From Gammaproteobacteria bacterium (lineage in GTDB: Bacteria; Pseudomonadota; Gammaproteobacteria; Ga0077554; Ga007554), in the NCBI GenBank assembly GCA_021731145.1, contig JAKFXX010000007.1:72108-136107 (forward strand): 64,000 nucleotides of DNA, written 5' to 3'. Of the stretch, positions 14,712 to 31,897 are shown in pieces. Both the position numbers and the translations under genes were made by a program. A model generated the notes under the pieces. The model was given only the letters and a program-made list of their open reading frames with translations. It was not told the origin of the DNA and ran no database searches. Each line of letters begins with the position of its first letter. Within the stretch, counting starts at the first letter, position 1.

Positions 14712-14949
14712 TTATCTTTGAATGTATGCGCTGTGCCCATGAAGGGGGCAATGTGCGCACCGGAGCAAGCAGCCTGGGCGACGTGGAACGGAATCCAGGC
14801 TGCGCACTTCATTTGATCAAACTGTCTGCTATTAACAATTCTGCAACATTTGGCGGGTAAAGTACCCCCTTCCTAAGCAAGCTCATCCCGTTGATGGGGT
14901 GGACGACAGCATATTCCTTCGATCAACCGGATTCACGAATAAAAACGTC

Positions 14950-16743: not shown

Positions 16744-16783
16744 TACATGAACACATAAATTGTGCAGCGTAATGCCGCACGAT

Positions 16784-16830
16784 TGTAGGTCGGCCTTCAG
16801 GCCGACATATCCGGCTAAAGCCAGACCTAC
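16784..16830. repeat. REP-like palindromic element (TGTAGGTC...GACCTACA)
   Basis: tgtaggtc (16784-16791) and gacctaca (16823-16830) flank an inner hairpin gtcggcc-ttca-ggccgac. It lies between the ExbB-like and ExbD-like genes. Confidence 0.65.
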
Positions 16831-16892
16831 ATGGGGTTCGGATCATGTTTCGTAATTTATAATTTCATGTGCTAGGACTGGAGGATAAAACG

Positions 16893-17297
16893 ATGCAAGT
16901 GCAGTCCGAAGATAAACCGTACGATGACATCAACGTCACGCCCATGCTCGATCTGGCGTATGTGTTGCTGGTAATTTTCATCATCATGACCACCGCTTCG
17001 GTACAGGGTATCAAGGTCAATCTGCCCAAGGCCAGCGCCACACCAAGCCTGGCTAAACCGACCACCAAGGCGATTACGATCACCGATGCCGGGCAAATAT
17101 TTCTCGACACCTATCCGGTGACGATGTCGGAGCTGGAAACACAGTTGCGCAGTTACAAGGCAGCCAACCCAAGTTTTCCCGTGGTCATCAAGGGCGACGC
17201 CAAGGTTCAGTATGAAAAGGTGATTGACGTGCTGGACTTGATGGGCAAGCTCGATATTACGCAATTGGGTTTGGTTACACAGAAAATTGTCAAATAA
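16893..17297 (+). CDS. ExbD/TolR family biopolymer transport protein
   Basis: A single N-terminal transmembrane helix (NVTPMLDLAYVLLVIFIIMT) is followed by a periplasmic domain typical of ExbD/TolR. It is adjacent to the ExbB-like gene. Confidence 0.8.
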   Translation: MQVQSEDKPYDDINVTPMLDLAYVLLVIFIIMTTASVQGIKVNLPKASATPSLAKPTTKAITITDAGQIFLDTYPVTMSELETQLRSYKAANPSFPVVIKGDAKVQYEKVIDVLDLMGKLDITQLGLVTQKIVK

Positions 17298-17336
17298 GAG
17301 CGCTATGCCAGGCTCGATTTTGTTGGGATGTAACGT

Positions 17337-18032
17337 GTGAGTGCCGACAAGCAGTTTCTGTTCCGCTGGGCGCCCAGGCTGATAGTGGTGGCGTTCCTCC
17401 TGCTGTTTCTTGTGGCGGCGGTCTATTTTCTGAGAGATATCATCTTTGCTGATGATAGCCACAAAAAAAATGTGATCCATGAGATCTCGCTGATAAAGCC
17501 GCCGCCGCCTCCCAAGCCAGAGGAAAAACCACCGGAGCCGGAGGTGAAAAAAGAAGAGGTAAAAATCCCCGAGCCGGAAACGCCGCCTCCTCCTGCTGAT
17601 CAGCCTGATAATGCCAAGCAAGACGAACCACCGCCCGCAAACGACTTGGGGCTGGATGCTGATGGTCAGGCGGGTTCTGATTCCTTTGGCTTGGGTGCCA
17701 ACAAAGGGGGAAGAAGCATCATCGGAGGGGGGGGCGGTAACGGCGGTGGTGGAAATCGCTACGGCTGGTATGCGGGAATGATTGAAAAGGGAATTCAGGA
17801 TGTTTTGGACAAGAATAAAGAGCTTGCCAAAGATAACTATAAGGTTGTCATAAAAGTCTGGGTCAACAAGGACGGGAGCGTCGAGCGCTTTGATCTTGGC
17901 GGTTCTTCCGGGAATCCAGAGACGGATAAGGCGATAAGGACGGCACTGAAAGAAATGACACGGGTGAAAGAACCGCCTCCAGACGGAATGCCGCAACCTG
18001 TAAAGCTGCGCATCACTTCGCGTTTGTTGTAA
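17337..18032 (+). CDS. TonB-like energy transducer (N-terminal transmembrane helix, Pro/Glu/Lys-rich spacer, C-terminal TonB-like domain)
   Basis: It has a transmembrane helix (LIVVAFLLLFLVAAVYFL), a spacer (PPPPKPEEKPPEPEVKKEEVKIPEPETPPPP), a Gly-rich stretch and a C-terminal domain (YKVVIKVWVNKDGSVERFDL...). A GTG start is assumed. Confidence 0.6.
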   Translation: MSADKQFLFRWAPRLIVVAFLLLFLVAAVYFLRDIIFADDSHKKNVIHEISLIKPPPPPKPEEKPPEPEVKKEEVKIPEPETPPPPADQPDNAKQDEPPPANDLGLDADGQAGSDSFGLGANKGGRSIIGGGGGNGGGGNRYGWYAGMIEKGIQDVLDKNKELAKDNYKVVIKVWVNKDGSVERFDLGGSSGNPETDKAIRTALKEMTRVKEPPPDGMPQPVKLRITSRLL

Positions 18033-18121
18033 GTCGGCAGGTAATGCCGGATTACCTGATGATTTTCATCCCTCTGGGGTGAGGATTGAGATGAAAAATT
18101 CACAGTGAGAAGAACCTGGAA

Positions 18122-19660
18122 ATGGCAATTAAGAAATTAGGTGTTACCGTCTTATCTCTCGCATTGTTCAATCCATCCGCGTGGGCTGGAGAAAAAGAAG
18201 ATCTTGAAAAACTGCGCGGAACTACCAAAGGACTGATTCAAATTCTGGTGGAGCAGGGCGCGATTACCAAGGAAAAGGCCGGGGAGTTAATACGCGAGAT
18301 CGAGAAATCTCCCACGGAAACGGAAACACCGGAAGAAGAAGTAGATAAGAAAACCGTGCGCGTGCCTTACGTGTCTGAAACGGTCAAGCAGGAAATGACG
18401 GAGCAGATCCGGATGGATGTGCTGGCACAAGCCAAGCGGGAACAGTGGGGCAAGCCCGGCGCAATCCCTGAGTGGGCACAGAAAATAAGGTGGGAAGGCG
18501 ATTTTCGCTTGCGTTCACAGAGCGATATGTTTCAGAGCGACAACTTTAACCTCCTGCCAAACTATCTGGAGATTAACCGGGTTGGCGGTCCGGCGAATAC
18601 GGATAATCCCTTTCTGAATACTACTAATGACCGGGAGCGTTTACGGTTGCGGGCAAGGCTGAGCATGCTCGCCGAAGTCACGCAAGGGGTCACGGCGGCA
18701 TTCCGTCTGGCCACCGGTAGTGCCAATGATCCTGTTTCGACCAACCAGACATTGGGCAATATGGGCAATCGTTTTAATTTTATGCTTGATCAAGCCTACA
18801 TCAAGCTGGAGCCTTATCAATGGTTGACGCTGGTGGGTGGCAAGATACCCAATCCCTGGTTTGGCACCGACCTGGTGTGGGACGAGGATCTTAACTTCGA
18901 TGGCGCCGCCGTGCAATTCAAACCGCGCATCGGCAACGAACTGGTATGGTTCTCAACGCTGGGTGCTTTTCCGTTGCAGGAAATCGAGCTGTCGAAAAAG
19001 GACAAATGGCTATACGGTGCGCAGACCGGTGTCGATTGGAATCGAAGCCAGTTCAGGGCGAGATTTGGCGTGGCTTATTATGACTACCAGAATATCACCG
19101 GGCAAAGAAAAGCGCCCAATGATCCTTCTCAGGATTTTACCGCGCCGCAGTTTATGCAGAAAGGTAATACCTTGTTTGATATTTCACAAACTCAAAACAG
19201 TGGCAGGTACGCGCTTGCATCTGAATACAAAGAATTGAACATAACCGCCAACCTCGATATATACACATTTTCCCCGGTACACATCACGCTGACAGGCGAT
19301 TATGTCAAGAATATTGGGTTTAAAAAAGAAGACATAGTGCAGCGTACCGGGAGAGATGTCGACCAGCAGAATCAGGCATATTTGGGCAGGGTTGCTGTCG
19401 GCATGCCGAGGATCAAGCATCGCCACGACTGGCAGGTGTTCGGTGGTTATAAACACCTGGAAAGCGACGCCGTATTGGATGCCTTCACAGATTCCGATTT
19501 CCATCTGGGGGGCACCAATGCCAAAGGCTGGATCGCGGGCGGTAGCTATGGTGTTGCCACCGATACCTGGCTGACACTGCGCTGGTTGAGCGCGGATCAG
19601 ATAGTTGGGCCGCCGCTTGCCATCGACGTTATGCAACTTGATTTGAACGTGAGATTTTGA
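18122..19660 (+). CDS. Putative outer-membrane beta-barrel protein (porin-like; not a TonB-dependent receptor)
   Basis: It has a signal peptide (AWA/GE), an N-terminal charged helical segment, then alternating amphipathic beta-strands. The C-terminus is ...LNVRF, with an aromatic terminal residue. Confidence 0.55.
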   Translation: MAIKKLGVTVLSLALFNPSAWAGEKEDLEKLRGTTKGLIQILVEQGAITKEKAGELIREIEKSPTETETPEEEVDKKTVRVPYVSETVKQEMTEQIRMDVLAQAKREQWGKPGAIPEWAQKIRWEGDFRLRSQSDMFQSDNFNLLPNYLEINRVGGPANTDNPFLNTTNDRERLRLRARLSMLAEVTQGVTAAFRLATGSANDPVSTNQTLGNMGNRFNFMLDQAYIKLEPYQWLTLVGGKIPNPWFGTDLVWDEDLNFDGAAVQFKPRIGNELVWFSTLGAFPLQEIELSKKDKWLYGAQTGVDWNRSQFRARFGVAYYDYQNITGQRKAPNDPSQDFTAPQFMQKGNTLFDISQTQNSGRYALASEYKELNITANLDIYTFSPVHITLTGDYVKNIGFKKEDIVQRTGRDVDQQNQAYLGRVAVGMPRIKHRHDWQVFGGYKHLESDAVLDAFTDSDFHLGGTNAKGWIAGGSYGVATDTWLTLRWLSADQIVGPPLAIDVMQLDLNVRF

Positions 19661-20472: not shown

Positions 20473-21162
20473 ATGAGTCCAATTTCACGCCCTGCCTTTA
20501 GCCGTATTTTCCCCTTTGCGATTTATATTGCCTTTTTGGCCATTGCCTCCGGCATGTCCACCTTGCAGGATATGGGCTATATCAAAGACTGGGATTTGCG
20601 CTGGCTCTATCCTGTCAAGGTGGGTTTGGTGTTGCTGGCGCTGCTAGGGTTATGGCGCCATTATTCTGAACTTTCCAGGCCAGCCAATGTAAAGGCGGGG
20701 GACTGGATCGTTGCCGGGATCACGGGTGTTGTGGTTTTTGTGATCTGGATTAACCTGGACCAGGCGTGGGCGACAATGGGCAGCGAGTCACGCGGCTTCA
20801 GTCCGGTATCAGAAGGGGGCGAAATTGACTGGATACTGGTGGCATTCCGTCTGATAGGCGCGGCTATGATAGTGCCTGTCATGGAGGAGTTGTTCTGGCG
20901 TTCGTTTGTGATGCGCTGGATAGATAACCCGGATTTTCTTCGCATCAATCCAGCTCAAATCAGCATTAAGTCGTTTGTTATAGCTTCGGTACTTTTTGGT
21001 ATCGAACACAATCTGTGGCTGGCGGGCATCATTGCCGGGATTGCCTATGGTTGGCTATACAAGCGCAGTGCCAATCTTTGGGTTCCTGTATTTTCACATG
21101 CCGTCACCAACGGCCTGCTTGGCATCTGGGTGATCTATTCCGGAAATTGGCAGTTCTGGTGA
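20473..21162 (+). CDS. CPBP-family intramembrane metalloprotease (CAAX protease-related; PEP-CTERM/exosortase-associated type)
   Basis: It has multiple transmembrane helices and the CPBP motifs EELFWRSF (EExxxR) and FGIEH. It resembles the CAAX protease subfamily that co-occurs with PEP-CTERM systems. Confidence 0.8.
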   Translation: MSPISRPAFSRIFPFAIYIAFLAIASGMSTLQDMGYIKDWDLRWLYPVKVGLVLLALLGLWRHYSELSRPANVKAGDWIVAGITGVVVFVIWINLDQAWATMGSESRGFSPVSEGGEIDWILVAFRLIGAAMIVPVMEELFWRSFVMRWIDNPDFLRINPAQISIKSFVIASVLFGIEHNLWLAGIIAGIAYGWLYKRSANLWVPVFSHAVTNGLLGIWVIYSGNWQFW

Positions 21163-21359: not shown

Positions 21360-22133
21360 TTGAGAAAAATATTGTGTCTCATGGCGTGCGCCATTCTTGC
21401 TGCGTGCTCGGTAAATCCGCCAGCACATACCGGCAATGAAGAAATTCTCAATAAACTTGGGGAAATGAGCAAGCAGATCACTACGCTGAGTGATGATGTC
21501 AGCGTGATCAAGAAAGCGTTGGCCGTTGCGATGGGCGGCGCACCTGAGCAGCCGAAACCACCCGTTATTACTACGATTGATCTCGATGACGCCTCCCCTG
21601 TGAGGGGTGATGAAAATGCCACGGTGGCAATTGTTGAGTTTTCAGATTACCAGTGCCCATTTTGCGGCCGCTTTCATGCGCAGGTTCTACCCAGCCTGAA
21701 GAAAGCATATATAGATGCCGGGAAAGTCCGGCATATTTTTCGTGATTTTCCGCTTGATTTTCACCCTCAAGCAAAGGATGCGAGCATTGCTGCGAACTGT
21801 GTTGGTGAGCAGAAGGCCTATTGGGAGATGCACGACAGTTTGTTTGCAAATCAAAATCGCCTTGGCGCCGCTTTATATGAAGAGCTTGCTAAAAAGATGA
21901 ATCTTGATATGGCCTCTTTTCAAGCATGCCTGAAGAATGCGAAGCAGGCGGAAAAAATTGAGAAAGACCTGTCTTATGGGCAAAGCCTTGGGATAGACGG
22001 AACCCCCAGCTTTTTCATTGGACGCATTGAAGGCAAGAAGCTTGTGGATGTTAAGCAGATAGTAGGCGCACAGCCCCCGGCAGTGTTTGCCCAGGCAATT
22101 GAGGCTGCCTTGGGGGGCGCGCCTAAAAATTGA
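21360..22133 (+). CDS. DsbA-family thiol:disulfide oxidoreductase lipoprotein
   Basis: It has a lipobox (LAAC), a CPFC active site and a thioredoxin fold. A TTG start is assumed, with GGAGA 8 bp upstream. Confidence 0.8.
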   Translation: MRKILCLMACAILAACSVNPPAHTGNEEILNKLGEMSKQITTLSDDVSVIKKALAVAMGGAPEQPKPPVITTIDLDDASPVRGDENATVAIVEFSDYQCPFCGRFHAQVLPSLKKAYIDAGKVRHIFRDFPLDFHPQAKDASIAANCVGEQKAYWEMHDSLFANQNRLGAALYEELAKKMNLDMASFQACLKNAKQAEKIEKDLSYGQSLGIDGTPSFFIGRIEGKKLVDVKQIVGAQPPAVFAQAIEAALGGAPKN

Positions 22134-22185
22134 TGGCTGTTTTACTTACGAGATGAGTCCTCAGAGTAAGTGATATTTGATTTGT

Positions 22186-23382
22186 ATGCCCATTTACCAT
22201 TATAGCGCCTTGACAGAACGCGGCGTTTTGGCCGCAGGCGAGGGGGTTGCCACCTCGAGCGAAGCTTTACGCCAGGAATTGGTGGCGAAGGGTCTGCTGG
22301 TACAAGACATCCGTCAAAAAAACTCTGGATTGGGCTTGCGCCTAAAGCGCATCAAAGCGGAGGAATTTCTGCTGTTTAACCAGGAGTTTGTGGCACTCAT
22401 ACGCGCGGGTTTGACAATACCCGACGCCTTGAAAATAGCGGCGGATCGTCCTGATAGCCCGATGTTGGCCAGCCTCCTGCGGCACGTGAATGAAGAGGTG
22501 CATGGTGGTGCGTTACTTTCCGAAGCCTGCTCCAGGCACCCCGAGGTATTCGATGGTCTTTACGTCTCTGCGATAAAAACCGGCGAAAAGACCGGCGTGC
22601 TGGCGACGGTTCTGGAGAAATATCAAGCCTACCTCAAACGCCGGGTTGGTTTGCAGAAAACCATTTCACATGCGCTGACCTATCCGGTGTTTTTGTTGCT
22701 GGTGTTAGGCACGGTGCTGGGTGTGCTGTTTTTGTTTGTCATGCCGCGTTTTGTTGCGATGTATACCGATTTTGGCGCTGAACTGCCGCTACCCACACAA
22801 ATTCTCGTTACCTTGGTAAATAATTTGCCTTTTTATTTACCCGTGGTGTTATTGCTGGGCACGCTCGGATGGTTCGCCATCCAAGCCTGGGTAAAGACCG
22901 ATGCAGGGCGTCTGCGGGCAGATCATTTGAAGGGACGGCTGCCGATACTGGGGAAGGTCTATCAGGATATTGCCATCGTGCAACTGGTGCGGACGCTTGC
23001 CACCCTGCTCTCCGGTGGTACGCCCTTGGTCGAGGCCATGCGCATCACGCAGGATTCACTTACCAATCGCGCCAAGGCGCGTGCGTTGGCTCAGGCCGAA
23101 AACCTGGTGATGGGGGGGCAAAGCCTGGCGTCTGCCATGCGCAATACGCAACTCATGCCGGGAACGGCAATAAAGATGATTGAGGTGGGCGAGGCGTCGG
23201 GTGGGCTTGATGCCATGCTGGAGGAAATCGCCCAGTTCTATGAGGAAGTACTGACTAATAAACTTGCACGCATGACAGCATTGATTGAGCCTTTATTGAT
23301 GCTGATCATGGGCGTCATGATAGGCGGCACGATCATCGTGATGTATTTGCCGATCTTTCAGATTGCGGACATCGTCAAATGA
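22186..23382 (+). CDS. Type II secretion / type IV pilus inner-membrane platform protein (GspF/PilC/MshG family)
   Basis: It has two GspF-type repeats and three transmembrane segments. Its stop overlaps the ATPase start (ATGA). Confidence 0.85.
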   Translation: MPIYHYSALTERGVLAAGEGVATSSEALRQELVAKGLLVQDIRQKNSGLGLRLKRIKAEEFLLFNQEFVALIRAGLTIPDALKIAADRPDSPMLASLLRHVNEEVHGGALLSEACSRHPEVFDGLYVSAIKTGEKTGVLATVLEKYQAYLKRRVGLQKTISHALTYPVFLLLVLGTVLGVLFLFVMPRFVAMYTDFGAELPLPTQILVTLVNNLPFYLPVVLLLGTLGWFAIQAWVKTDAGRLRADHLKGRLPILGKVYQDIAIVQLVRTLATLLSGGTPLVEAMRITQDSLTNRAKARALAQAENLVMGGQSLASAMRNTQLMPGTAIKMIEVGEASGGLDAMLEEIAQFYEEVLTNKLARMTALIEPLLMLIMGVMIGGTIIVMYLPIFQIADIVK

Positions 23383-25097
23383 GCCATCCCTTCAGTTACC
23401 GGAGGTTAGGAGAAATCCTGCTGGGCAAGCAGTATGTCAGCCATCATCAGATAGATGCCGTCCTGACAGGCAAAAAGGGCCGGCTGGGCGAGGTGTTGCT
23501 TGATGAAGGCCGCATTACGCCAGCGCAGTTGGCCGAGGCTCTGGCAGAACAGTGCGGCTTACCCTATGTTGACCTGGAGGGATTTGTTATTTCGCCAGAG
23601 TTGTACAGCTTGATATCTGCAACGCACGCCTATCAGTATGGGGTTGTTCCCTACCAGAGAGACGGAGAAGTGTTGATCGTTGTTGTTTCTCCCCCCTGCG
23701 ATATTACTTTGGCCGACCGCCTGGAATGTTTGAGCGGTTTACAGGTGCGCCTATTTGCCAGCAGTCCACAAGCGATTGCAGCGGTGTTGAAGCGCAGCGA
23801 AGGGAATTCCGAGGTACTGAAAGGCGTCTCCGAGGATTTCAAGCTTGCCATCGTCAAGGAGAATGACGATGGCAAGGAGCAATACGTGTCATTGGATGCG
23901 GCCAATGAAGATGCCGCAAGCCCGGTTATAAAGCTCATTAACAGCATGCTGTCGGCGGCCATTCAAAAGCGTGTCAGTGACGTACATATAGAGACCTACG
24001 AAAAAGGCATCTCGGTCAATTACCGTATCGATGGTGTTTTATACCCCGCGACCGATACGCTCGACCGGCGCCATCAGAGCGCGTTGGTGTCGCGCCTCAA
24101 GGTGATGGCGGAGTTGGATATCGCCGAAAAAAGGGTACCCCAGGATGGACGATTCAAGTTGCGCTTTGGTTCGCGTGACATAGATTTCAGGGTATCCATC
24201 CTGCCCAGTGTGTTCGGTGAAGATGTGGTTATCCGGATTCTGGACAAATCATCCATCACCGATGGGATGAAGAATCTACGTCTGGAAAGCTTGGGAATGG
24301 CACCTGAAATCCTGAAAAAATTTCGCAAGAGTATCCATGAACCCTATGGCATGGTGCTGATTACCGGCCCCACGGGCAGTGGAAAAACGACCACGCTGTA
24401 TGCGGCGCTCAGCGAATTGAATACCGGTGATGAAAAGATCATTACCATCGAAGATCCGGTCGAATATCAATTGCACGGCATCGTGCAAATCGCGGTAAAC
24501 GAGAAAAAAAATCTTACCTTTGCCAAGGGGCTGCGTTCCATACTGCGGCATGATCCTGACAAGATCATGGTAGGTGAAATACGCGATGGAGAAACAGCGC
24601 AGATTGCCGTTCAATCGGCGCTGACGGGGCATCTGGTGTTCACAACGGTGCATGCTAATAGTGCTTTCGATGTGCTCGGGCGCTTCAGCCATATGGGAGT
24701 GGATACGTATAACTTTGTTTCGGCGCTCAATTGCGTCATGGCACAACGCCTGGTTCGAATCATTTGCCCGAAATGCAAGCGTCAAACCGCGGTTGATGAT
24801 GACATTCTGGAGCTGTCCGGGCTCGATCCTGCACAATATCAAGATCAAGCATGGTACGAAGGCGCCGGCTGTGATTACTGCCACGGCACGGGTTATCGCG
24901 GCCGTGCCGCCGTTACCGAGTTTCTCGCTTTGTCGCCATCCATCCGCCAGATGATCATAGAACGGCGTCCGATCAATGAGATGCAGGCGGCGGCGGTGCA
25001 GAATGGGATGGTCACATTACGTCAATCCGCACTGGCGCTGGTGCTTTCAGGCCAGGCGACGCTGAAAGAGATTAATCGTGTCACTTTCGTTGAATAA
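23379..25097 (+). CDS. GspE/MshE-family secretion ATPase with an N-terminal MshEN (c-di-GMP-binding) domain
   Basis: It has tandem RLGxxLL motifs (RLGEILLGKQYVSHHQIDAVL; RLGEVLLDEGRITPAQLAEALAEQ), Walker A GPTGSGKTT and a tetracysteine motif (CPKC...CDYC). Confidence 0.9.
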   Translation: MSHPFSYRRLGEILLGKQYVSHHQIDAVLTGKKGRLGEVLLDEGRITPAQLAEALAEQCGLPYVDLEGFVISPELYSLISATHAYQYGVVPYQRDGEVLIVVVSPPCDITLADRLECLSGLQVRLFASSPQAIAAVLKRSEGNSEVLKGVSEDFKLAIVKENDDGKEQYVSLDAANEDAASPVIKLINSMLSAAIQKRVSDVHIETYEKGISVNYRIDGVLYPATDTLDRRHQSALVSRLKVMAELDIAEKRVPQDGRFKLRFGSRDIDFRVSILPSVFGEDVVIRILDKSSITDGMKNLRLESLGMAPEILKKFRKSIHEPYGMVLITGPTGSGKTTTLYAALSELNTGDEKIITIEDPVEYQLHGIVQIAVNEKKNLTFAKGLRSILRHDPDKIMVGEIRDGETAQIAVQSALTGHLVFTTVHANSAFDVLGRFSHMGVDTYNFVSALNCVMAQRLVRIICPKCKRQTAVDDDILELSGLDPAQYQDQAWYEGAGCDYCHGTGYRGRAAVTEFLALSPSIRQMIIERRPINEMQAAAVQNGMVTLRQSALALVLSGQATLKEINRVTFVE

Positions 25098-26034
25098 TCT
25101 GTTTGACAGTATTGCACCGCGCTCTAAAGCCGTTTTTGGAATCGGCATCGGCAGGGATCGTCTTTCTGCCGCGCATGTTGTTACTACAAAACAGGCGAGA
25201 CATATCGAACGGATCAGGCAGATAAATCTGCCTTTCACACTATTCAGTGGCACCCCTACGCCCGAGATAGGTCATGGGCTTTCATCCTTGTTGGGCGAGT
25301 TATGCGGTGAAGTCAAAAGGTCGCATATTCCCATTCAGATCGCATTGCCTGACCCGGTGGTGAGCTTGCGTGTCTTCGAGTTGGGTGCCATTCCTAAAAC
25401 CAGAAAAGAGCAACTGGCGCTTGTCCACTGGCGGTTCAACAAGGAGTTGAATTTGGGGGGGCGCGCCATTGAATGCAGTTGCCAGCCTTTGGGCGTGGAT
25501 AACGACAAACATCTCTTGTTGGCGATGGCTATCGATCAGGCTTGGTTGGATTGCCTGAAGGAGGCGTGCCGGGACGCGGGTGTGATCAGTACGGTCATCG
25601 ACATGGCGGCGTGTTATCGCTCTAACCGTTTTTACGAACGCTTCTCTTGCGATGGCGCCGATGTAGTTGTTATTTCATTGGATGACGACGCCTGGACAGT
25701 GTCCATTTCGGACGCGCAAGGCCGTTTACGCTTTGTCCGCTCGCGTTGGCGTGAAACCATGCCGGAGCGGGAGAGGGAATATCAGGAAATAGCCGCCGAG
25801 TCAGAAAAGATGGTGCGCCTCTATGCGCATGCCGCCCCTGGCCGGAGCATAAAAAACATACACGCAATAGGTGATGCCAAGGATGTCTCTGGGGTCGCGG
25901 ATTTATTGGATCAACGCATGGCGGGGAAATGTATCAGGGTGGCCGGAGGAGTCGAGTTTATATCTAAGCAAGGCGTGTCCGGAAATACTGTAGACAGTAT
26001 GGTGTCAACCCTGTCGGCAACGGTGTTGCGATGA
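25078..26034 (+). CDS. PilM/MshI-like actin-fold assembly protein (putative)
   Basis: Its N-terminus (AVFGIGIGRDRLSAAHV) resembles the PilM/GspL ATPase-fold start. Its position follows the ATPase. The start is uncertain: GTG 25078 or TTG 25090. Confidence 0.5.
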   Translation: MSLSLNNLFDSIAPRSKAVFGIGIGRDRLSAAHVVTTKQARHIERIRQINLPFTLFSGTPTPEIGHGLSSLLGELCGEVKRSHIPIQIALPDPVVSLRVFELGAIPKTRKEQLALVHWRFNKELNLGGRAIECSCQPLGVDNDKHLLLAMAIDQAWLDCLKEACRDAGVISTVIDMAACYRSNRFYERFSCDGADVVVISLDDDAWTVSISDAQGRLRFVRSRWRETMPEREREYQEIAAESEKMVRLYAHAAPGRSIKNIHAIGDAKDVSGVADLLDQRMAGKCIRVAGGVEFISKQGVSGNTVDSMVSTLSATVLR

Positions 26035-26573
26035 AAATCATAACGAATTTTTCGACGTCATCCGCTGGCATGGCGCCGCGGATCATGATGATATTGTGGG
26101 CAACGGCGTTGCTGGCCGCGCTGTTAGCCGCTGGGATGGCTATGCAAACATCCCAATTGAAACAGACGAAGCTGGACTTGGAGCGTCAATTGTCAAAACT
26201 CCAAAACAGGCACGTCGCTGGGATCCCGAAAGTATTTCCCCGTCATGAAGAGCTTGTCACGTTAAAGAAGCGCATAGACGCTGTTTCATCCATATCAAAT
26301 AGTGGGGAAGGGTCACTATCCGCGTTCCTGAGAAAAATAGAGCTGCTATTGCCTGACGAAGCCTATCTTGTGACACTTCACTACAAGGGAGATACCAGGG
26401 AGGCTCAGATTACGGCTGAGGCAGGCAGCGCAAAAATACTTACCGGTTTTTTGCGTGATCTTGAAAAAGAGAAAAGCTTCCTTGAAGTTTTGCTGACAAA
26501 ACAGTCGCAGCGCACATTGAACGATAAGCAGATTGTTCAGTTCGATCTGCGTATAAAGGAGCGTCTTTCATGA
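26031..26573 (+). CDS. PilN/GspL(periplasmic)-like bitopic assembly protein (putative)
   Basis: It has a single transmembrane helix followed by a coiled coil (LKQTKLDLERQLSKLQ). It is translationally coupled (ATGA) to both neighbours. Confidence 0.45.
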   Translation: MKIITNFSTSSAGMAPRIMMILWATALLAALLAAGMAMQTSQLKQTKLDLERQLSKLQNRHVAGIPKVFPRHEELVTLKKRIDAVSSISNSGEGSLSAFLRKIELLLPDEAYLVTLHYKGDTREAQITAEAGSAKILTGFLRDLEKEKSFLEVLLTKQSQRTLNDKQIVQFDLRIKERLS

Positions 26574-27139
26574 AGGCGACGCATCCTTTTGCGGAAAACA
26601 TATGGTATTCGCTACGCCATCCCCTGATCAAGGCGGGGATGGCGGCTAGCGGGGCCGCCATAACCCTGGCCATTGTAGTCTGTTTTGGATATTGGATGCC
26701 CGTGCGTAACGATATCAACAGCCTCTCTGAATCGGTTAATCTCGAACGTAAGCGGATTGTTGATGATACGCGTTCCGTGCAAATTTATAACGCATATTTG
26801 AGCGCTATAAAACAGCTTTCGGCCATTGATAAAAAAATTAACAGCCCTGCCGGTCATGCAGATCTTGTGAATAATATTGATAGTATCGCAATACAAAGAA
26901 AAGTAACGATTATTTCTGAATCCTACGATGAGGGTAAAGAAAGGAATGGTTACACGTCGCTGTATATGGAGTTGGCATTACAGGGAGACTATCAGGGGCT
27001 GAATGAATTTCTTGTTGATATTCGTGGCCTGCCAACCTGGACTGTTGTTGGGGAAGGGTCGATAAGCCGCTTGGCAGGACAGCAGGATTTGGTTAAGGCG
27101 CAATTGCGTTTAATAACTTATCACAAGACGGGAATATGA
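26570..27139 (+). CDS. PilO/GspM-like bitopic assembly protein (putative)
   Basis: It has a single transmembrane helix, a coiled coil and a C-terminal alpha/beta domain. Its position in the pilMNOP-like run supports the call. Confidence 0.45.
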   Translation: MKATHPFAENIWYSLRHPLIKAGMAASGAAITLAIVVCFGYWMPVRNDINSLSESVNLERKRIVDDTRSVQIYNAYLSAIKQLSAIDKKINSPAGHADLVNNIDSIAIQRKVTIISESYDEGKERNGYTSLYMELALQGDYQGLNEFLVDIRGLPTWTVVGEGSISRLAGQQDLVKAQLRLITYHKTGI

Positions 27140-27768
27140 AAAGTTACAAGGAAGTAGCCATCAGACATCGCAATGCAATATTGCTGGTGATGGCTTTTGT
27201 CTTGATGGCCGCCAACGTATTGAATTGGGGCGCATGGGGTCAGGTCAATTCTCGGGAAGCGCCTGGAAGGGGATCAACGGCAGGGGGGTTCCAGGTTTCT
27301 GATTTTCAGATAAAAAATATGAATGTGCCTGAGGAGAAAGATAGCGCGATTGGCCGTGACTTGTTCTATCCTGTTTTTGAAGAATATTCAGAACCTGTTA
27401 AAGAAATAACATCCATTGCGGAGGATAATGAAAATATTAAACAAATAACTGATGCCGAGATACCTCCTCCCCTTCCGCAAAAAACTCCTGAACAACTTGA
27501 AGAGGAGATCGCACGGTCCGATGCCGCTAATTTTAAATATATTGGTACGATTTGGCGTGGAGGACAAGGCCAGGCGCTTTTGGTGAACACGGACAAGCGT
27601 TATTTCGTCTTTTCTGGAGACAAGGCAGGCAGCCGATTCGTTGTTGAAATGATAACGAACGACGCGGTCTCTCTAAGAGACCCTGTCACAAACGTGACGG
27701 CTCAAGTACTAATATCGGGAGGACCCGCATTAAAAGCGGCTCAAGAGACAAGTGACATTGAAAGATAG
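27136..27768 (+). CDS. PilP-like periplasmic protein (putative)
   Basis: It has an N-terminal transmembrane helix or signal anchor, a Pro/Glu-rich linker and a C-terminal beta domain. It sits immediately upstream of the secretin. Confidence 0.4.
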   Translation: MKSYKEVAIRHRNAILLVMAFVLMAANVLNWGAWGQVNSREAPGRGSTAGGFQVSDFQIKNMNVPEEKDSAIGRDLFYPVFEEYSEPVKEITSIAEDNENIKQITDAEIPPPLPQKTPEQLEEEIARSDAANFKYIGTIWRGGQGQALLVNTDKRYFVFSGDKAGSRFVVEMITNDAVSLRDPVTNVTAQVLISGGPALKAAQETSDIER

Positions 27769-27774
27769 CGTAAA

Positions 27775-30057
27775 ATGAAACCGATAAAAAAAATAATATG
27801 TTATTTCATGGTGGTAGTGTTGTGCCTGTTGGTTGCATCTTGTGCCGGTCCGATTCGAAAGGCGGAAAACTATGAGGATAAACAGGAATGGATAAATGCG
27901 GTAATTGAGTACCGAAAGGCCTATAACGATGAGCCAAGGAACGTGGAATATAAGTCACGTCTGAAGCATGCCGAATTCAAGGCGGCCGACTATTATTACC
28001 ATCAAGGTATGCTACTTTTGGAGCGGGAAAAAATCGATGAAGCCATAGTTCAACTCCAGCAGGGCTTGACTGCAATGCCCGGTGATGAGCGGCTAATGCA
28101 GGCGATGAACAAAGCGCTTTCAAAAAGAGAGGCCAACAATCTTTATCAAGAAGGAGTTCTGATAGAAGGCGCGGGCAATGCCGACGAAGCGAAGCGCATA
28201 TTCCAAAGGGCCGTAAATGTCTATCCTGATCACAAAGCGGCATCAGAGGCCCTTGCCAATCTTGAAAATAAAAAAATCAAGGAGCGTGATACCGAGAAAT
28301 TCTCGTTGACTTCAGCATCCCCCATTTCGCTGAATTTCCGTCAAGCCGATATGCGCTCAGTTTTTGAGTTCGTTGCCAAATCATTTGGCATAAATATCAT
28401 ATTTGATGAGGCCATCAAGACCATATCCCCCGTCACGGTATTTGCCAAGGATGTTTCCTTCGAGCAAGCTTTGGCCCTGATTAATGTGGCAACCAAAACC
28501 TTCTATAAGAAAATCAGCAAAAATACCATCATAATTGTGCCGGATTCAAAGGACAAGCGTGGTCAATATGAAGATCATATGATGCGTACCTTTTATTTGA
28601 GCACTGTCCGGGCCAAGGAGGCGGCGGATATCCTGAGAGGTGTGATGACAATAAGGAAAATGATCGTCAACGAACCGTTAAATACGCTGGTTGTCCGTGA
28701 TACCGAGGAAGTTATCAGGCAGGTGGAAAAGATTATTGATGTAAACGACAGAAAGCCCGCTGAAATAGTTCTGGAAGTTGAGATCCTGGAGATGAATCGC
28801 ACCAAGGCAGAGCGTCTTGGCCTTGATCTTGGGTCGTATCAAATCAGCGCTGCGGTTCCGTCAGCCATCGCCCTGAGTGGATCCATTAGCGGCGCGATTG
28901 AGAAGGCTTCGCTACTTACGCTTCCTTCGGCGACCTTCAGGTTTTTTAAGCAGGATGTAGATGCCAGGACGCTTGCCAATCCCAAGGTAAGGGTTGTGAA
29001 CGGAAAATCCGCAAAAATCCATATTGGCGACCGTGTGCCGTTACGTGTTTCCACGATCATCAATACGACGGGGCAGGTGAACACAACTTATGATTACAAA
29101 GACATTGGTATAAAGCTTAGCGTTGAACCAACCATAAATCTGGACAATTCATCATCAGTAAAGCTTGGTTTGGAAGTGAGCTCCCTGGGGGCTAATCTGG
29201 GAACGGCGACAGAGCCGGCATTCCTTATCGGTAGCCGAAATGCTGAAACTTTTATGCTGTTGCGTGATGGTGAAACAGCGATTCTGGGCGGTCTTATTCG
29301 TGATGAGGATCGCAAGACGGTAGTAAGGGTTCCATTACTGGGAGACATTCCTGCCGCAGGTTCTCTATTTAGTTCTTACGATATGTCGAAGGGGCGCACC
29401 GACGTGTTGTTGACCATCACGCCTCGTGTTGTGCGAGGCTGGGATCTGCCCGCCAAGGAAGTCCGCCAGTTTTATTCTGGCACCGAAGATAAATATCTTG
29501 ATCAAGCGCCCTTTCAGAGCCTCGCTTCTCCATCATCGGCTGCGGTAAAGGAGGATGCCGGGATTCAGGAGTCCCCGCAGGCACCTGTTAACGAAAGTCC
29601 GGCGGCACCCCCATTGCCAGGCCAGTCGATTGCGCCAGGTATTGGGGGGAATGTTATCCAGTCTCCCGCGCTCGGCTTTTCTAAGCCAGCTTATATGGTC
29701 ATCAATCAAGATGAGGTGGATGTTCAGATTCTTTTTGACAACCTCGCAAAAAACAGGGAGATCGCCACGGAAATACAATTCAATTCAAAGGTGCTGGAAT
29801 TTGTCGGGGGTGATGCGGGCGAATTCAAAGTTGGTTTTTTTCAGGCCGACAAAAATGAGGCAGGAGATGCTGTACGTCTAAGCGCCGGGCTTGCAAATGA
29901 TGCCGTCTCGAAAGAGAAAGGTATTCTGGCAACCCTCCGGTTCCGTGCCTTGAAGCCAGGTGTTTCTGCTCTCACGTATGGTGCCTCATCGGTCAAAAAT
30001 GCGGCGGGTGACATCATTAATCCACAGTCAAATATCTCACGTGTCATTGTACGCTAG
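27775..30057 (+). CDS. Secretin lipoprotein with an N-terminal TPR domain (MshN-MshL-like fusion) and a C-terminal linker plus cohesin-like domain
   Basis: It has a lipobox (LLVASCAG), TPR repeats and a secretin domain (ANPKVRVVNGKSAKIHIGDRVP...LLGDIPAAGSLF). A Pro/Ala/Ser-rich linker is followed by a roughly 130-aa beta domain (DVQILFDN...ILATLRFRALKPGVSALTYG) that resembles cohesin modules. Confidence 0.8.
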   Translation: MKPIKKIICYFMVVVLCLLVASCAGPIRKAENYEDKQEWINAVIEYRKAYNDEPRNVEYKSRLKHAEFKAADYYYHQGMLLLEREKIDEAIVQLQQGLTAMPGDERLMQAMNKALSKREANNLYQEGVLIEGAGNADEAKRIFQRAVNVYPDHKAASEALANLENKKIKERDTEKFSLTSASPISLNFRQADMRSVFEFVAKSFGINIIFDEAIKTISPVTVFAKDVSFEQALALINVATKTFYKKISKNTIIIVPDSKDKRGQYEDHMMRTFYLSTVRAKEAADILRGVMTIRKMIVNEPLNTLVVRDTEEVIRQVEKIIDVNDRKPAEIVLEVEILEMNRTKAERLGLDLGSYQISAAVPSAIALSGSISGAIEKASLLTLPSATFRFFKQDVDARTLANPKVRVVNGKSAKIHIGDRVPLRVSTIINTTGQVNTTYDYKDIGIKLSVEPTINLDNSSSVKLGLEVSSLGANLGTATEPAFLIGSRNAETFMLLRDGETAILGGLIRDEDRKTVVRVPLLGDIPAAGSLFSSYDMSKGRTDVLLTITPRVVRGWDLPAKEVRQFYSGTEDKYLDQAPFQSLASPSSAAVKEDAGIQESPQAPVNESPAAPPLPGQSIAPGIGGNVIQSPALGFSKPAYMVINQDEVDVQILFDNLAKNREIATEIQFNSKVLEFVGGDAGEFKVGFFQADKNEAGDAVRLSAGLANDAVSKEKGILATLRFRALKPGVSALTYGASSVKNAAGDIINPQSNISRVIVR

Positions 30058-30538
30058 GAAATACAAACTCCTGGGAGTCACCTTCGTCGAGTTGCTGGTG
30101 ACGCTGGTGATTCTTTCGATTCTCGCGGCGGTTGCATTGCCTTATGCAGAAATTACGGTGCGCCGCAATAAGGAGATTGAATTGCGCCAGGCACTGCGTG
30201 ATATGCGCAGTGCCATTGACCGTTTTCATCTGGACTGGGAAACGGCAAAAATATCGAAATTGGATAATGATGTTAGCGAAAATGGTTACCCAAAAAAATT
30301 GCAAGTATTGGTTGAAGGAGTGGGGTCTGCCCAGGCCAAAGGGACAAAGATTAAATACTTGCGCCGAATTCCTGCCGACCCGTTCTCCGGCCCTGACAAG
30401 CCGTCACTGGAGCACTGGGTGCTGCGCGGTTATCAGGATGCGTCCGATGCCACCTCGTGGGGAGGAACGGATGTTTACGATGTACGGTCATTAAGCCGTC
30501 GCAAGGCGATTGACGGCAGCTTCTACAAGGATTGGTGA
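30047..30538 (+). CDS. Type IV pilin-like pseudopilin (prepilin N-terminus KYKLLG/VTFVELLVTL)
   Basis: It has a class III signal with Gly at -1, Glu at +5 and a hydrophobic helix. The start codon is uncertain (GTG 30041 or TTG 30047). It overlaps the secretin stop. Confidence 0.6.
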   Translation: MYARKYKLLGVTFVELLVTLVILSILAAVALPYAEITVRRNKEIELRQALRDMRSAIDRFHLDWETAKISKLDNDVSENGYPKKLQVLVEGVGSAQAKGTKIKYLRRIPADPFSGPDKPSLEHWVLRGYQDASDATSWGGTDVYDVRSLSRRKAIDGSFYKDW

Positions 30539-30539
30539 C

Positions 30540-30917
30540 ATGCGCCGCAGTATTGTCCACAAGGCGCGCGGCTTTACCTTGGTGGAGCTGATGGTGGTGC
30601 TGGTTTTGATTGTTATACTTGCCAGTCTCGCAGCACCCTTGGTAACCAGCTCAATACAGCGCGGCCGTGAAGCTGTGCTCAAGGAAGATTTATTAGTGAT
30701 GCGTAAAGCAATTGATGATTACTATGCGGATACGGGAAATTATCCGGAGGATATCAAGCAACTGATGGAAAAACGTTATCTGAGGAAAATTCCTGTTGAT
30801 CCTTTAACTGAACGCAGTGATACGTGGCGTGAGGTTCGTGATGATGCGGGGATTGTTGATATAAAAAGTGGAGCGGATGGAAAATCCGCCAATGATGAGT
30901 CATACAGCGAATGGTAG
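30540..30917 (+). CDS. GspG-like pseudopilin (prepilin N-terminus MRRSIVHKARG/FTLVELMVVL)
   Basis: It has the canonical G-FTLVE prepilin motif. Its C-terminal region resembles GspG (IPVDPLTERSDTWR). Confidence 0.7.
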   Translation: MRRSIVHKARGFTLVELMVVLVLIVILASLAAPLVTSSIQRGREAVLKEDLLVMRKAIDDYYADTGNYPEDIKQLMEKRYLRKIPVDPLTERSDTWREVRDDAGIVDIKSGADGKSANDESYSEW

Positions 30918-30957
30918 TTTATTGTCTTAATCTTAATTTGATGTGAGAGGCTGGTCT

Positions 30958-31392
30958 ATGAAAAAGAGCATGAGATGGTCTTCGGGTTTTACCATGATGG
31001 AGTTGCTGATTGTTCTGGTTATTATCGGATTGTTAGCGGCTTTGGTGGGTCCTGCATTGTTCCAGCGCATCAATCCGGCAAAACAATCGGCGGCGCGCAG
31101 TCAGATTGAAAATTTCATGACAGCTCTCGACACCTATTTTGTAGATAACGGACACTTTCCAACGACACAACAGGGTTTTTTGGCGCTTCGTGTTAAACCG
31201 GAAGGTGATGAAAAGTGGGCGGGGCCTTATCTTAAAAAAGACGTGCCAAACGATCCATGGGGAAATCCATACCAATACCGCGCTCCTGGACACAATGGTG
31301 GCTACGATATTTTATCTCTGGGCGCGGATGGTAAAGAGGGTGGCGAAAATGAAAATATGGATATCAATAGCTGGGAGATCGACAAGAAATAA
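30958..31392 (+). CDS. Major pseudopilin, GspG family
   Basis: The N-terminus is MKKSMRWSSG/FTMMELLIVLVIIGLLAALV. GspG hallmarks are present (QIENFMTALDTYFVDNGHFPT...NPYQY...YDILSLGADGKEGGE). Confidence 0.8.
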   Translation: MKKSMRWSSGFTMMELLIVLVIIGLLAALVGPALFQRINPAKQSAARSQIENFMTALDTYFVDNGHFPTTQQGFLALRVKPEGDEKWAGPYLKKDVPNDPWGNPYQYRAPGHNGGYDILSLGADGKEGGENENMDINSWEIDKK

Positions 31393-31897
31393 TCATGATG
31401 GATTTACCTATATCATGGTGCTGGTCGCGGTTGTAATAACCGGCCTGATGGCAGGTGTTGCAGCCACCATCGCATCGCGGGTTATGCAGGCCGAGAGAGA
31501 GAAGGAATTGCTTTTCCGTGGCATGGCTTATCAGAATGCGATAAAAAGCTATTATCAGGCTGGCGCGCAACTTAATACGTTTATCTTTCCGCGCTCGTTA
31601 AACGATTTGCTGAATGACCCGCGCTTTCCCGGCAAACATCATATTCGTGCTCTGTATGTGGACCCAATGGGGAAAGGACGGCGGGAGTGGCGCGTGATCC
31701 GTTCAATTGATGGCGGTATCGCCGGCGTTGTCAGCTCAAGCAAACAAAAATCTTTAAAGACCGCCAACTTCCCCGCTGGACTGGAATCTCTGGCGGGCAA
31801 GAAGTCCTATGCGGAATGGGTTTTTCAGTACAACGCTCCCGCAGCAATCCAAACTCCACGTTCCGTCATGCCACGTGTACCTGTGCAGCAGAAATAG
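31349..31897 (+). CDS. Pilin-like protein with a non-canonical prepilin N-terminus (putative minor pseudopilin)
   Basis: It carries ...HDG/FTYIMVLVAVVITGLMAG, which is prepilin-like but has Met at +5 and an 18-aa leader if ATG 31349 is used. It overlaps the gspG-like gene by 44 bp in another frame. An alternative start is ATG 31415. Confidence 0.4.
   Translation: MKIWISIAGRSTRNNHDGFTYIMVLVAVVITGLMAGVAATIASRVMQAEREKELLFRGMAYQNAIKSYYQAGAQLNTFIFPRSLNDLLNDPRFPGKHHIRALYVDPMGKGRREWRVIRSIDGGIAGVVSSSKQKSLKTANFPAGLESLAGKKSYAEWVFQYNAPAAIQTPRSVMPRVPVQQK

Follow-up and report, generated by a model that had tools for sequence, protein, structure and literature searches.

A lipoprotein secretin that combines a TPR domain with a tethered cohesin-fold module at its C-terminus

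Type II secretion, type III secretion and type IV pili have in secretins their best-studied outer-membrane gates, whose accessory contacts (pilotins, the S-domain and AMIN domains) are few and well defined. In GspD, PulD and InvG, an S-domain follows the barrel and binds lipoprotein pilotins at the inner leaflet of the outer membrane. Some secretins, such as BfpB and TcpC, are themselves lipoproteins. Cohesins, for their part, are known outside cellulosomes in all domains of life, and in scaffoldins they are separated by disordered tethers of variable length. We know of no characterized secretin that carries a tetratricopeptide repeat (TPR) domain together with a cohesin-fold module on a Pro/Ala linker. 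HxcQ of Pseudomonas aeruginosa is a lipoprotein secretin (Viarre et al. 2009, PMC2797151; as cited in PMC12475490), and the last four residues of RcpA bind the TPR lipoprotein TadD (PMC10499894). Here, we describe a secretin gene that combines these elements with a cohesin, found in a 64,000-nucleotide (nt) stretch of contig JAKFXX010000007.1 from a Gammaproteobacteria bacterium (assembly GCA_021731145.1), hereafter called the window.

The gene product is an outer-membrane pore subunit, namely a secretin of lipoprotein type that has a TPR domain of its own and bears a tethered cohesin-fold module at the C-terminus. Its domains follow one another in the order lipobox cysteine (Cys23), TPR domain, N0, N1, secretin core, conserved tail of 30 residues, Pro/Ala linker and C-terminal domain of 130 residues (Table 1; coordinates are positions in the window, and all window features lie on the + strand unless stated). 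The open reading frame (ORF) starts 6 nt past the stop codon of the preceding gene, and its final codons overlap the start of the next, a prepilin gene (GTG 30041 or TTG 30047), which places the secretin gene inside a tightly packed operon. A single-chain AlphaFold2 model of the full-length protein has a mean predicted local distance difference test score (pLDDT) of 72.8 and a predicted template modeling score (pTM) of 0.34. The TPR domain (pLDDT >90), the N0 and N1 domains (about 80), the barrel (about 70) and the cohesin (about 90) appear as separate confident units, joined by low-confidence linkers and with no confident packing between domains. A Foldseek search with this model retrieved Vibrio cholerae PilQ as the best match, followed by GspD and InvG (E-values from 1e-16 to 1e-10).

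The C-terminal domain is a genuine cohesin, as judged from four independent kinds of evidence (Pfam, a family profile, PDB sequences and structure models). A cohesin-like beta domain of about 130 residues had been proposed in a first-pass annotation made from the nucleotide sequence, and that proposal hinged on a significant cohesin match. Scanned in isolation, residues 622-760 match Pfam Cohesin (PF00963) at an E of 1.1e-5, the scores for the lone domain (26.1-26.4 bits) lying above the threshold of 24.1, and the proposal stands. The match is marginal, being absent from the report of the full-length scan and seen only when the domain is scanned alone. PF00963 also matches 25 of 35 diverse C-termini of the family at E <=0.01, with a best E of 8e-8, and precomputed annotation places Cohesin on just four of the best 120 homologues. 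Owing to this marginal match, databases name the family members "general secretion pathway protein D" or "secretin N-terminal domain-containing protein". When compared with 1.84 billion representative proteins, a profile built from the domain matches the C-terminal ends of family members of 740-810 residues, and also retrieves proteins with 3-12 tandem matches of a multi-cohesin, scaffoldin-like type (E down to 5e-43). Run as a word-indexed search of proteins, the cohesin profile retrieved nothing but fragments of this secretin family, and among PDB sequences the sole matches to the profile were two cohesins, which are not significant (E about 1).

The fold of the domain was examined in an AlphaFold2 model of the isolated module (pLDDT 93.1, pTM 0.86), which displays the nine-stranded jelly-roll of cohesins. 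All of the top 50 Foldseek matches in the PDB are cohesins (E from 1e-9 to 3e-6), with query-normalized template modeling (TM) scores of 0.64-0.85, and of 0.80-0.85 for the best ten. Together with the sequence matches, this goes well past what chance would yield. They include cohesins of the anchoring scaffoldins OlpC, OlpA and ScaB, as well as the non-cellulosomal cohesins of Archaeoglobus (2xdh) and Clostridium perfringens (2jh2). The closest relative of the domain outside secretins was found in a protein of 2,234 residues on a JGI metagenome contig (Ga0209979_1001108; L059, positions 5718-12422). This protein has seven cohesin-like modules among thrombospondin type 3 (TSP3) Ca-binding repeats, and looks like a non-cellulosomal scaffoldin-like protein.

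The central part of the protein belongs to the secretin superfamily. The Secretin model (PF00263) matches residues 392-554 with 126.8 bits against a threshold of 27.5 (E 8.6e-37), Secretin_N (PF03958) matches residues 270-329 with 37.3 bits against 28.2, and FecR_C, STN and N0-like models of Pfam match residues 186-256. These limits agree with the secretin core that had been assigned to residues of about 270-560 from sequence. The protein does not, on the other hand, fall within the curated secretin subtypes. Its score with the GspD equivalog (TIGR02517) is 163.2 bits against a cut-off of 351.35, and its domain content differs from that of GspD, with N0 and one N1 domain only instead of N0-N3, and without a helical S-domain. 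The PilQ model (TIGR02515) gives 150.7 bits against 284.35, and the Pfam scan of the secretin revealed no AMIN domain. The MshL model (TIGR02519) gives 82.8 bits, which is far under its cut-off of 250.2 and lower than the scores of the GspD and PilQ models, and no MshN model matches. The resemblance to an MshN-MshL fusion that the first-pass annotation had seen is therefore rejected.

The tail that follows the barrel is strongly conserved: all 65 aligned homologues share W556, F566, S568 and G569, and at least 90% of them R564, Y574 and F580. The linker, by contrast, varies in length and composition among the homologues, forming a tether of 40-90 residues. It is predicted to be disordered (pLDDT <50 across residues 564-627) and hydrophilic, in keeping with the Pro/Ala/Ser-rich linker described earlier.

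At the N-terminus, the sequence LLVAS-C23-AG fits the lipobox pattern [LVI][ASTVI][GAS]C, which qualifies the product as a predicted lipoprotein; Cys23 is invariant in all 65 aligned homologues, and the residue at position +2 after it is alanine in the window protein. Eight Pfam TPR models match residues 71-163 (E 1.4e-5 to 9e-3), each slightly under its own cut-off, and the consensus TPR protein CTPR3 from the PDB matches the N-terminal domain with an E of 5.9e-5. The AlphaFold2 model of this domain consists of helical hairpins throughout, with eight helices, and most homologues have precomputed TPR matches. Both the lipobox and the N-terminal TPR repeats of the first-pass annotation are thus confirmed. 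In the model, the TPR domain begins about three residues past the lipidated cysteine and ends nine residues ahead of N0, so that it must run down the outside of the barrel. The position of the TPR domain right after the lipid anchor resembles that of a pilotin fused to a secretin. A specific kinship of the TPR domain with pilotins was considered and rejected, since the matches are to generic TPR models and CpoB only, and no particular likeness to PilF, PilW or Tgl turned up (TIGR02521, E 0.036; Tgl, E 0.19).

Searches with the full-length protein retrieved 1,213 homologues at E <=1e-10. Among the best 120 of these, each has a length of 734-813 residues and the same conserved C-terminal domain, a single fragment excepted. 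The lipobox cysteine, TPR, N0, N1, barrel, tail, variable linker and cohesin are common across the aligned family. Scanning one genome per species with the full-length alignment returned 58 related loci. The Gammaproteobacteria part of this set comprises Acidiferrobacterales, Sulfurifustis, Gallionellaceae, Thiobacillus, Sideroxyarcus, Thiohalophilus, Thiodiazotropha and Granulosicoccaceae, and the remaining lineages are candidate division FCPU426, Rhodomicrobiaceae, Nitrospirota and Acidobacteriota. A local hidden Markov model (HMM) detected the cohesin at the secretin C-terminus in about 50 of the 54 complete genes of these loci; one secretin lacks the domain (L051) and two have very divergent versions (L040 and L056). 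With the same model, no further cohesins were found in the neighboring genes of the 58 loci. The TPR-secretin-cohesin design is the hallmark of a large, conserved environmental family, and not an isolated oddity. The earlier remark that a cohesin on a secretin would be unusual holds in that no characterized secretin is known to us to have one, and fails in that the combination is typical of a family of more than 1,200 members. Within the papers that could be searched, we found no description of a secretin carrying a cohesin, nor of a TPR-secretin-cohesin family.

No other part of the protein evolves as fast as the cohesin, which has a mean pairwise p-distance of 0.71 compared with 0.34 for the barrel, as is expected of a partner-recognition surface. 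The same rapid divergence would be shown by a passive spacer or a relic with no specific ligand, and the few members in which the domain is missing or degenerate point in that direction as well. We consider this explanation very improbable, because the module has stayed in place in several phyla, in about 50 of the 54 complete genes, retains the invariant residues F635, N670, G729, S731, L733, G745, Q751 and R756, and has a predicted fold of high confidence.

Table 1. Coordinates of the secretin gene, its encoded domains and the other genes of the operon in the 64,000-nt window
Feature	Residues	Position	Strand	Basis
TPR-secretin-cohesin lipoprotein gene	760 aa	27775..30057	+	ORF and translation
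Signal peptide and lipobox, LLVAS-C23	1-23	27775..27843	+	Sequence; Cys23 conservation
TPR-like helical domain	24-175	27844..28299	+	Pfam TPR_2/6/14/16/19, PDB CTPR3, AlphaFold2 helices
N0-like domain	184-256	28324..28542	+	Pfam FecR_C, type_II_gspD_N0, STN; beta-alpha fold in AlphaFold2 model
Single N1-type ring domain (Secretin_N)	269-341	28579..28797	+	PF03958; AlphaFold2 secondary structure
Secretin beta-barrel core	392-554	28948..29436	+	Pfam PF00263; Foldseek to PilQ, GspD, InvG
Conserved post-secretin tail	555-584	29437..29526	+	Alignments; sits where an S-domain would
Disordered Pro/Ala/Ser-rich linker	585-629	29527..29661	+	Alignments; pLDDT
Cohesin-fold module	630-760	29662..30054	+	
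Stop codon TAG of secretin gene		30055-30057	+	
GspF/PilC-type platform protein, first operon gene		22177..23382	+	Pfam T2SSF; syntenic in 41 loci
GspE/PilB-type ATPase with MshEN N-terminus		23379..25097	+	Pfam T2SSE, MshEN
PilM-like		25078-26034	+	Named by position only, no family match
PilN		26031-26573	+	Pfam PilN
PilO		26570-27139	+	Pfam PilO
PilP-like		27136-27768	+	Named by position only, no family match
pp1 prepilin-type gene		about 30041-30538	+	Overlaps secretin stop; N_methyl
pp2 prepilin-type gene		about 30540-30917	+	N_methyl
GspG major pseudopilin		30943-31392	+	T2SSG; TIGR01710
pp4 prepilin-type gene		about 31349-31897	+	GFTYIM motif, without Glu5

The tail and the cohesin are more likely periplasmic than exposed at the cell surface. 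In every solved secretin known to us, what follows the secretin domain is located at the periplasmic face, by the inner leaflet of the outer membrane, as seen in the complexes of the GspD S-domain with pilotins and in the binding of TadD by the RcpA C-terminus (PMC10499894). The AlphaFold2 model has no extra hydrophobic, beta or membrane-crossing element between residue 554 and the cohesin, and the cohesins should, by these two arguments, hang in the periplasm. We tentatively favor a function of the cohesin as a tethered periplasmic docking module that captures a cargo or an accessory protein, in a machine similar to type II secretion systems (T2SS) and gated by cyclic di-GMP (c-di-GMP). The docking of a partner at the pore that the first-pass annotation had suggested is thus plausible, and would probably take place in the periplasm. 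In such a machine, 12-15 cohesins per ring would hang in the periplasm on flexible tethers and would most likely serve to dock proteins. Their partner, either a Sec-exported cargo awaiting entry to the vestibule or an accessory component, might be recognized through an element other than a canonical dockerin, and the ATPase of the machine would be switched on by c-di-GMP.

The operon around the secretin extends from 22177 to 31897 in the window, and its eleven genes (GspF, GspE, PilM-like, PilN, PilO, PilP-like, secretin, pp1, pp2, GspG and pp4) are syntenic in most loci, the four prepilin-type genes being so in 46-50 of them. The platform protein scores 295 bits with the GspF model (TIGR02120), under the cut-off of 424, and the ATPase scores 559 bits with the PilB model and 540 bits with the GspE model (GspE cut-off 630), under the cut-off in both cases. 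The major pseudopilin passes the GspG model (TIGR01710) with 164.8 bits against 88.85. Comparison of the PilP-like protein with PDB sequences gave nothing meaningful. With respect to the T2SS gene set, GspC, H, I, J, K, L and M are not present and there are only four pseudopilins; the PilM-like, PilN, PilO and PilP-like genes replace GspC, GspL and GspM. Because the secretin, the ATPase and the platform protein all score under the equivalog cut-offs, the system belongs to the type IV filament superfamily as a distinct and widespread machine that is T2SS-like but lies outside the curated subtypes. The prepilin motif of pp4, G-FTYIM, is without the usual Glu5, as in tip pseudopilins of the GspK type. 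The listed pp4 ORF (from 31190) overlaps the end of gspG, and the real start codon is therefore likely to be close to 31349.

A gene for a DsbA-like protein of thioredoxin fold with a lipoprotein-type signal (LAACS) immediately precedes the operon (21360-22133, +). It is kept upstream of the operon in the lineage of the window (L001, L002 and L034) and adjoins the operon in L021. A possible role of the protein is that of a disulfide oxidoreductase dedicated to the system or to its cargo.

The ATPase of the machine is probably gated by c-di-GMP, as judged from its sequence. It matches MshEN with 58 bits and passes the model of the MshE-related c-di-GMP motif (NF053729) with 43 bits against a cut-off of 38, and its sequence RLGEVLLDEGRITPAQLAEALAEQ fits the published c-di-GMP motif of the MshE type. 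In two loci (L017 and L024), a PAS-GGDEF-EAL gene lies directly downstream of the operon. The MshEN domain, the motif match and the PAS-GGDEF-EAL neighbors make regulation of the machine by c-di-GMP likely.

Thirty of the loci have at least 2.5 kb of sequence downstream of the operon, and in 14 of them (L005, L012, L014, L020, L022, L026, L027, L028, L030, L035, L036, L041, L047 and L056) a giant ORF, of more than 1,300 residues or cut by the end of the locus, starts on the same strand within 1.6 kb of the last pseudopilin gene. Judged directly from the sequences, each giant ORF has a typical Sec signal peptide. The giants belong to several families that are unrelated to one another. Eleven loci encode giants with SpvB, TcdB_toxin_midN and FG-GAP domains, of which the full-length homologues are fused TcB/TcC-Rhs proteins of 3,000-4,200 residues, and five encode RHS-repeat proteins with a transglutaminase domain. 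Further giants are a teneurin-like NHL/TTR protein, a CARDB-rich protein and an RHS and TIG protein. Their position suggests that the giants downstream may be cargo of the machine, which would be an unusual export route for toxins of the Rhs/Tc type, association being no proof of it. Carried to its full extent, this idea makes the cohesin ring the cargo-recruitment crown of an unrecognized, c-di-GMP-gated T2SS-like subtype devoted to giant Sec-exported proteins (TcB/TcC-Rhs toxins, teneurin-like proteins and adhesins), which would be bound via a non-canonical tag unrelated to dockerins; we think this extended form unlikely.

The giants have also to be considered with respect to an anchoring function at the surface, where the tail would reach the outside of the cell and the cohesins would hold secreted giants (Rhs/Tc-like toxins, adhesins) at the mouth of the pore, in the manner of OlpA, OlpC and SdbA. 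That the best structural matches include cohesins of the surface-anchoring scaffoldins OlpC, OlpA and ScaB would suit such a function, as would the giant exported proteins beside the operon in 14 of the 30 loci. It is nevertheless improbable, since the C-terminal extension is periplasmic in all solved secretins known to us (PMC10499894), the stretch between residue 554 and the cohesin has no predicted membrane-crossing element and includes a disordered, hydrophilic linker, and no dockerin was found in the giant proteins.

Several points weigh against a docking module in the periplasm, the function that we favor. A cohesin fold is by itself no proof of protein docking, and the periplasmic topology rests on homology. 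Six-frame translations of the window, searched with the regular expression D-x-[DN]-x-[DNS]-G-x-[IVLM]-x-x-x-D, contain no canonical dockerin with its two DxDxDG loops; the operon proteins have no Pfam match to Dockerin at E <=0.01, and PF00404 is absent from the giant neighbors and from 30 full-length homologues. Cross-cluster BLASTP found no common short module among the giant proteins, and no partner of the cohesin was identified in the window, the operon or the giant neighbors. A classical cohesin-dockerin pair is consequently not supported locally, the search having been confined to these sequences and not extended to the rest of the genomes. In the window and its lineage, topA lies on the opposite strand downstream of the operon, and no giant gene follows the operon in the window.

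In the main alternative, the partner would lie within the secretin ring and no cargo would be bound. The cohesin could contact either the barrel or the fused TPR-lipoprotein module, in its own or a neighboring subunit, replacing the clamp of S-domain and pilotin by which other secretins are targeted and stabilized, and would thereby serve the assembly or self-piloting of the ring. This is in line with the TPR lipoproteins TadD (PMC10499894) and PilF (Koo 2012, as cited in PMC12475490), pilotins for which the C-terminus of the secretin is the binding site. The TPR domain, the lipobox and the cohesin always occur together in the family, and the TPR domain, being three residues from the lipidated cysteine, must lie beside the barrel where the C-terminal tail emerges. 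In a mirror-tree analysis, the divergence of the cohesin, corrected for that of the core, correlates best with that of the TPR domain (partial r 0.66). This correlation is confounded by the shared history of domains that belong to one polypeptide, and the value for TPR and N0N1 is higher (0.73). A long, disordered tether of variable length is needless for a fixed contact in the ring, and, to judge from HxcQ (Viarre 2009, as cited in PMC12475490), a secretin that is itself lipidated can do without a pilotin clamp. The single-chain AlphaFold2 model, moreover, has no confident inter-domain packing (pTM 0.34). On balance, such an assembly function appears somewhat unlikely, and a docking module for cargo or accessory proteins remains our preferred interpretation.

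Besides protein partners, glycans have to be considered as ligands. The beta-sandwich might bind peptidoglycan, or a periplasmic or exported polysaccharide, and so either hold the secretin in place, much like the AMIN domains in PilQ, or guide exopolysaccharide. The absence of AMIN domains from the family is compatible with this, and secretins have recently been implicated in the export of slime, a polymer (PMC12475490). Genes linked to PEP-CTERM and exopolysaccharide (a PEP-CTERM protein and pepcterm_CAAX) are present in the window, but these neighbors are confined to the lineage of the window and to L021, and we give a tether to cell wall or glycan little credence. The genes in question, near the operon at 12-602, 786-2348 and 20473-21162 (+), encode a PEP-CTERM protein, a PBP-like protein and a PEP-CTERM-associated CAAX protease (TIGR03008, 241 bits). 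In the distant locus L021 (18333-22298), where the secretin is only 46% identical, a trio of PEP-CTERM, PBP-like and TpsB genes stands again beside the operon, which hints at a recurrent link.

Two further gene sets of the window were recorded, both upstream of the operon. A two-partner secretion pair consists of TpsB (POTRA_2/ShlB; 2576-4186, +) and a TpsA/FHA-like protein of 3,454 residues (4347-14711, +) with ESPR, a TPS domain and DUF3739. Two adjacent loops of Ca-binding type in this TpsA protein, DTDNDGVIGKAD...DVNHDGVIDGQD (nt 9783-9900), the only hits of the dockerin expression in the six frames of the window, were considered as a dockerin and rejected: they are 4 residues apart and therefore without the dockerin helices, and they have weak EF-hand matches only (E at least 0.19). 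The genes at 14899-19660 (+) encode, in this order, an ExbB/TolQ-type protein with unusual N-terminal DUF2341 and LamG (Laminin_G_3) domains, ExbD, a TonB-like protein and a porin of the Porin_5 family. This set looks like an energizing module of the TonB type with a lectin-like periplasmic or extracellular extension.

A broad family of secretins with an N-terminal, pilotin-like TPR lipoprotein module and a C-terminal cohesin adds a design principle to outer-membrane gates, namely a built-in docking module, and points to an uncharacterized machine in environmental bacteria, iron- and sulfur-oxidizing ones among them. Recruitment of cargo by the cohesin, should it occur, would account for the choice of substrates by a T2SS-like machine, and could reveal an export route for giant Sec-dependent Rhs/Tc-like toxins. 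A cargo-recruitment crown, if true, would bring a recognition step based on a cohesin to a Gram-negative secretion pathway for the first time, and would open a new way of export to toxins of the Rhs/Tc type.

Compared with described machines, the system resembles MSHA (MshE, MshL and MshN) in having an ATPase with a c-di-GMP-binding N-terminus of the MshE type, and a TPR element and a secretin in one system. It resembles the canonical T2SS and type IVa pili in that the major pseudopilin passes the GspG model and that PilM-like, PilN and PilO genes are present. It differs from all three in that the secretin, the ATPase and the platform protein score under the GspD, PilQ and MshL, the GspE and PilB, and the GspF equivalog cut-offs, respectively. 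The cohesin module shares only 12-20% identity with the PF00963 cohesins of OlpC (4dh2), OlpA (3ul4), CipA (1ohz) and Archaeoglobus (2xdh). With no dockerin partner detected, it is further set apart from cellulosomal and non-cellulosomal cohesins by its host, a Gram-negative outer-membrane channel, and by a probably periplasmic location.

Like HxcQ, BfpB and TcpC, the secretin is itself a lipoprotein, as predicted from its lipobox, and a lipid anchor can replace a separate pilotin for targeting to the outer membrane. HxcQ has neither a TPR domain after the anchor nor a folded C-terminal module, whereas the window protein has both. A TPR lipoprotein at the periplasmic face also works with the secretin in the pairs of PilQ with PilF, PilW or Tgl and of RcpA with TadD, where the contact is the secretin C-terminus (PMC10499894). 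In those pairs, the partners are separate polypeptides and the C-terminal contact involves few residues, while here the TPR lipoprotein is fused N-terminally to the secretin. The S-domains of GspD, PulD and InvG, with their pilotins AspS, PulS and InvH, are likewise periplasmic protein-binding elements that follow the barrel. They are helical, 40-60 residues long and packed on the barrel, whereas in the window protein a tail of 30 residues leads through a long disordered linker to a beta-sandwich of 130 residues.

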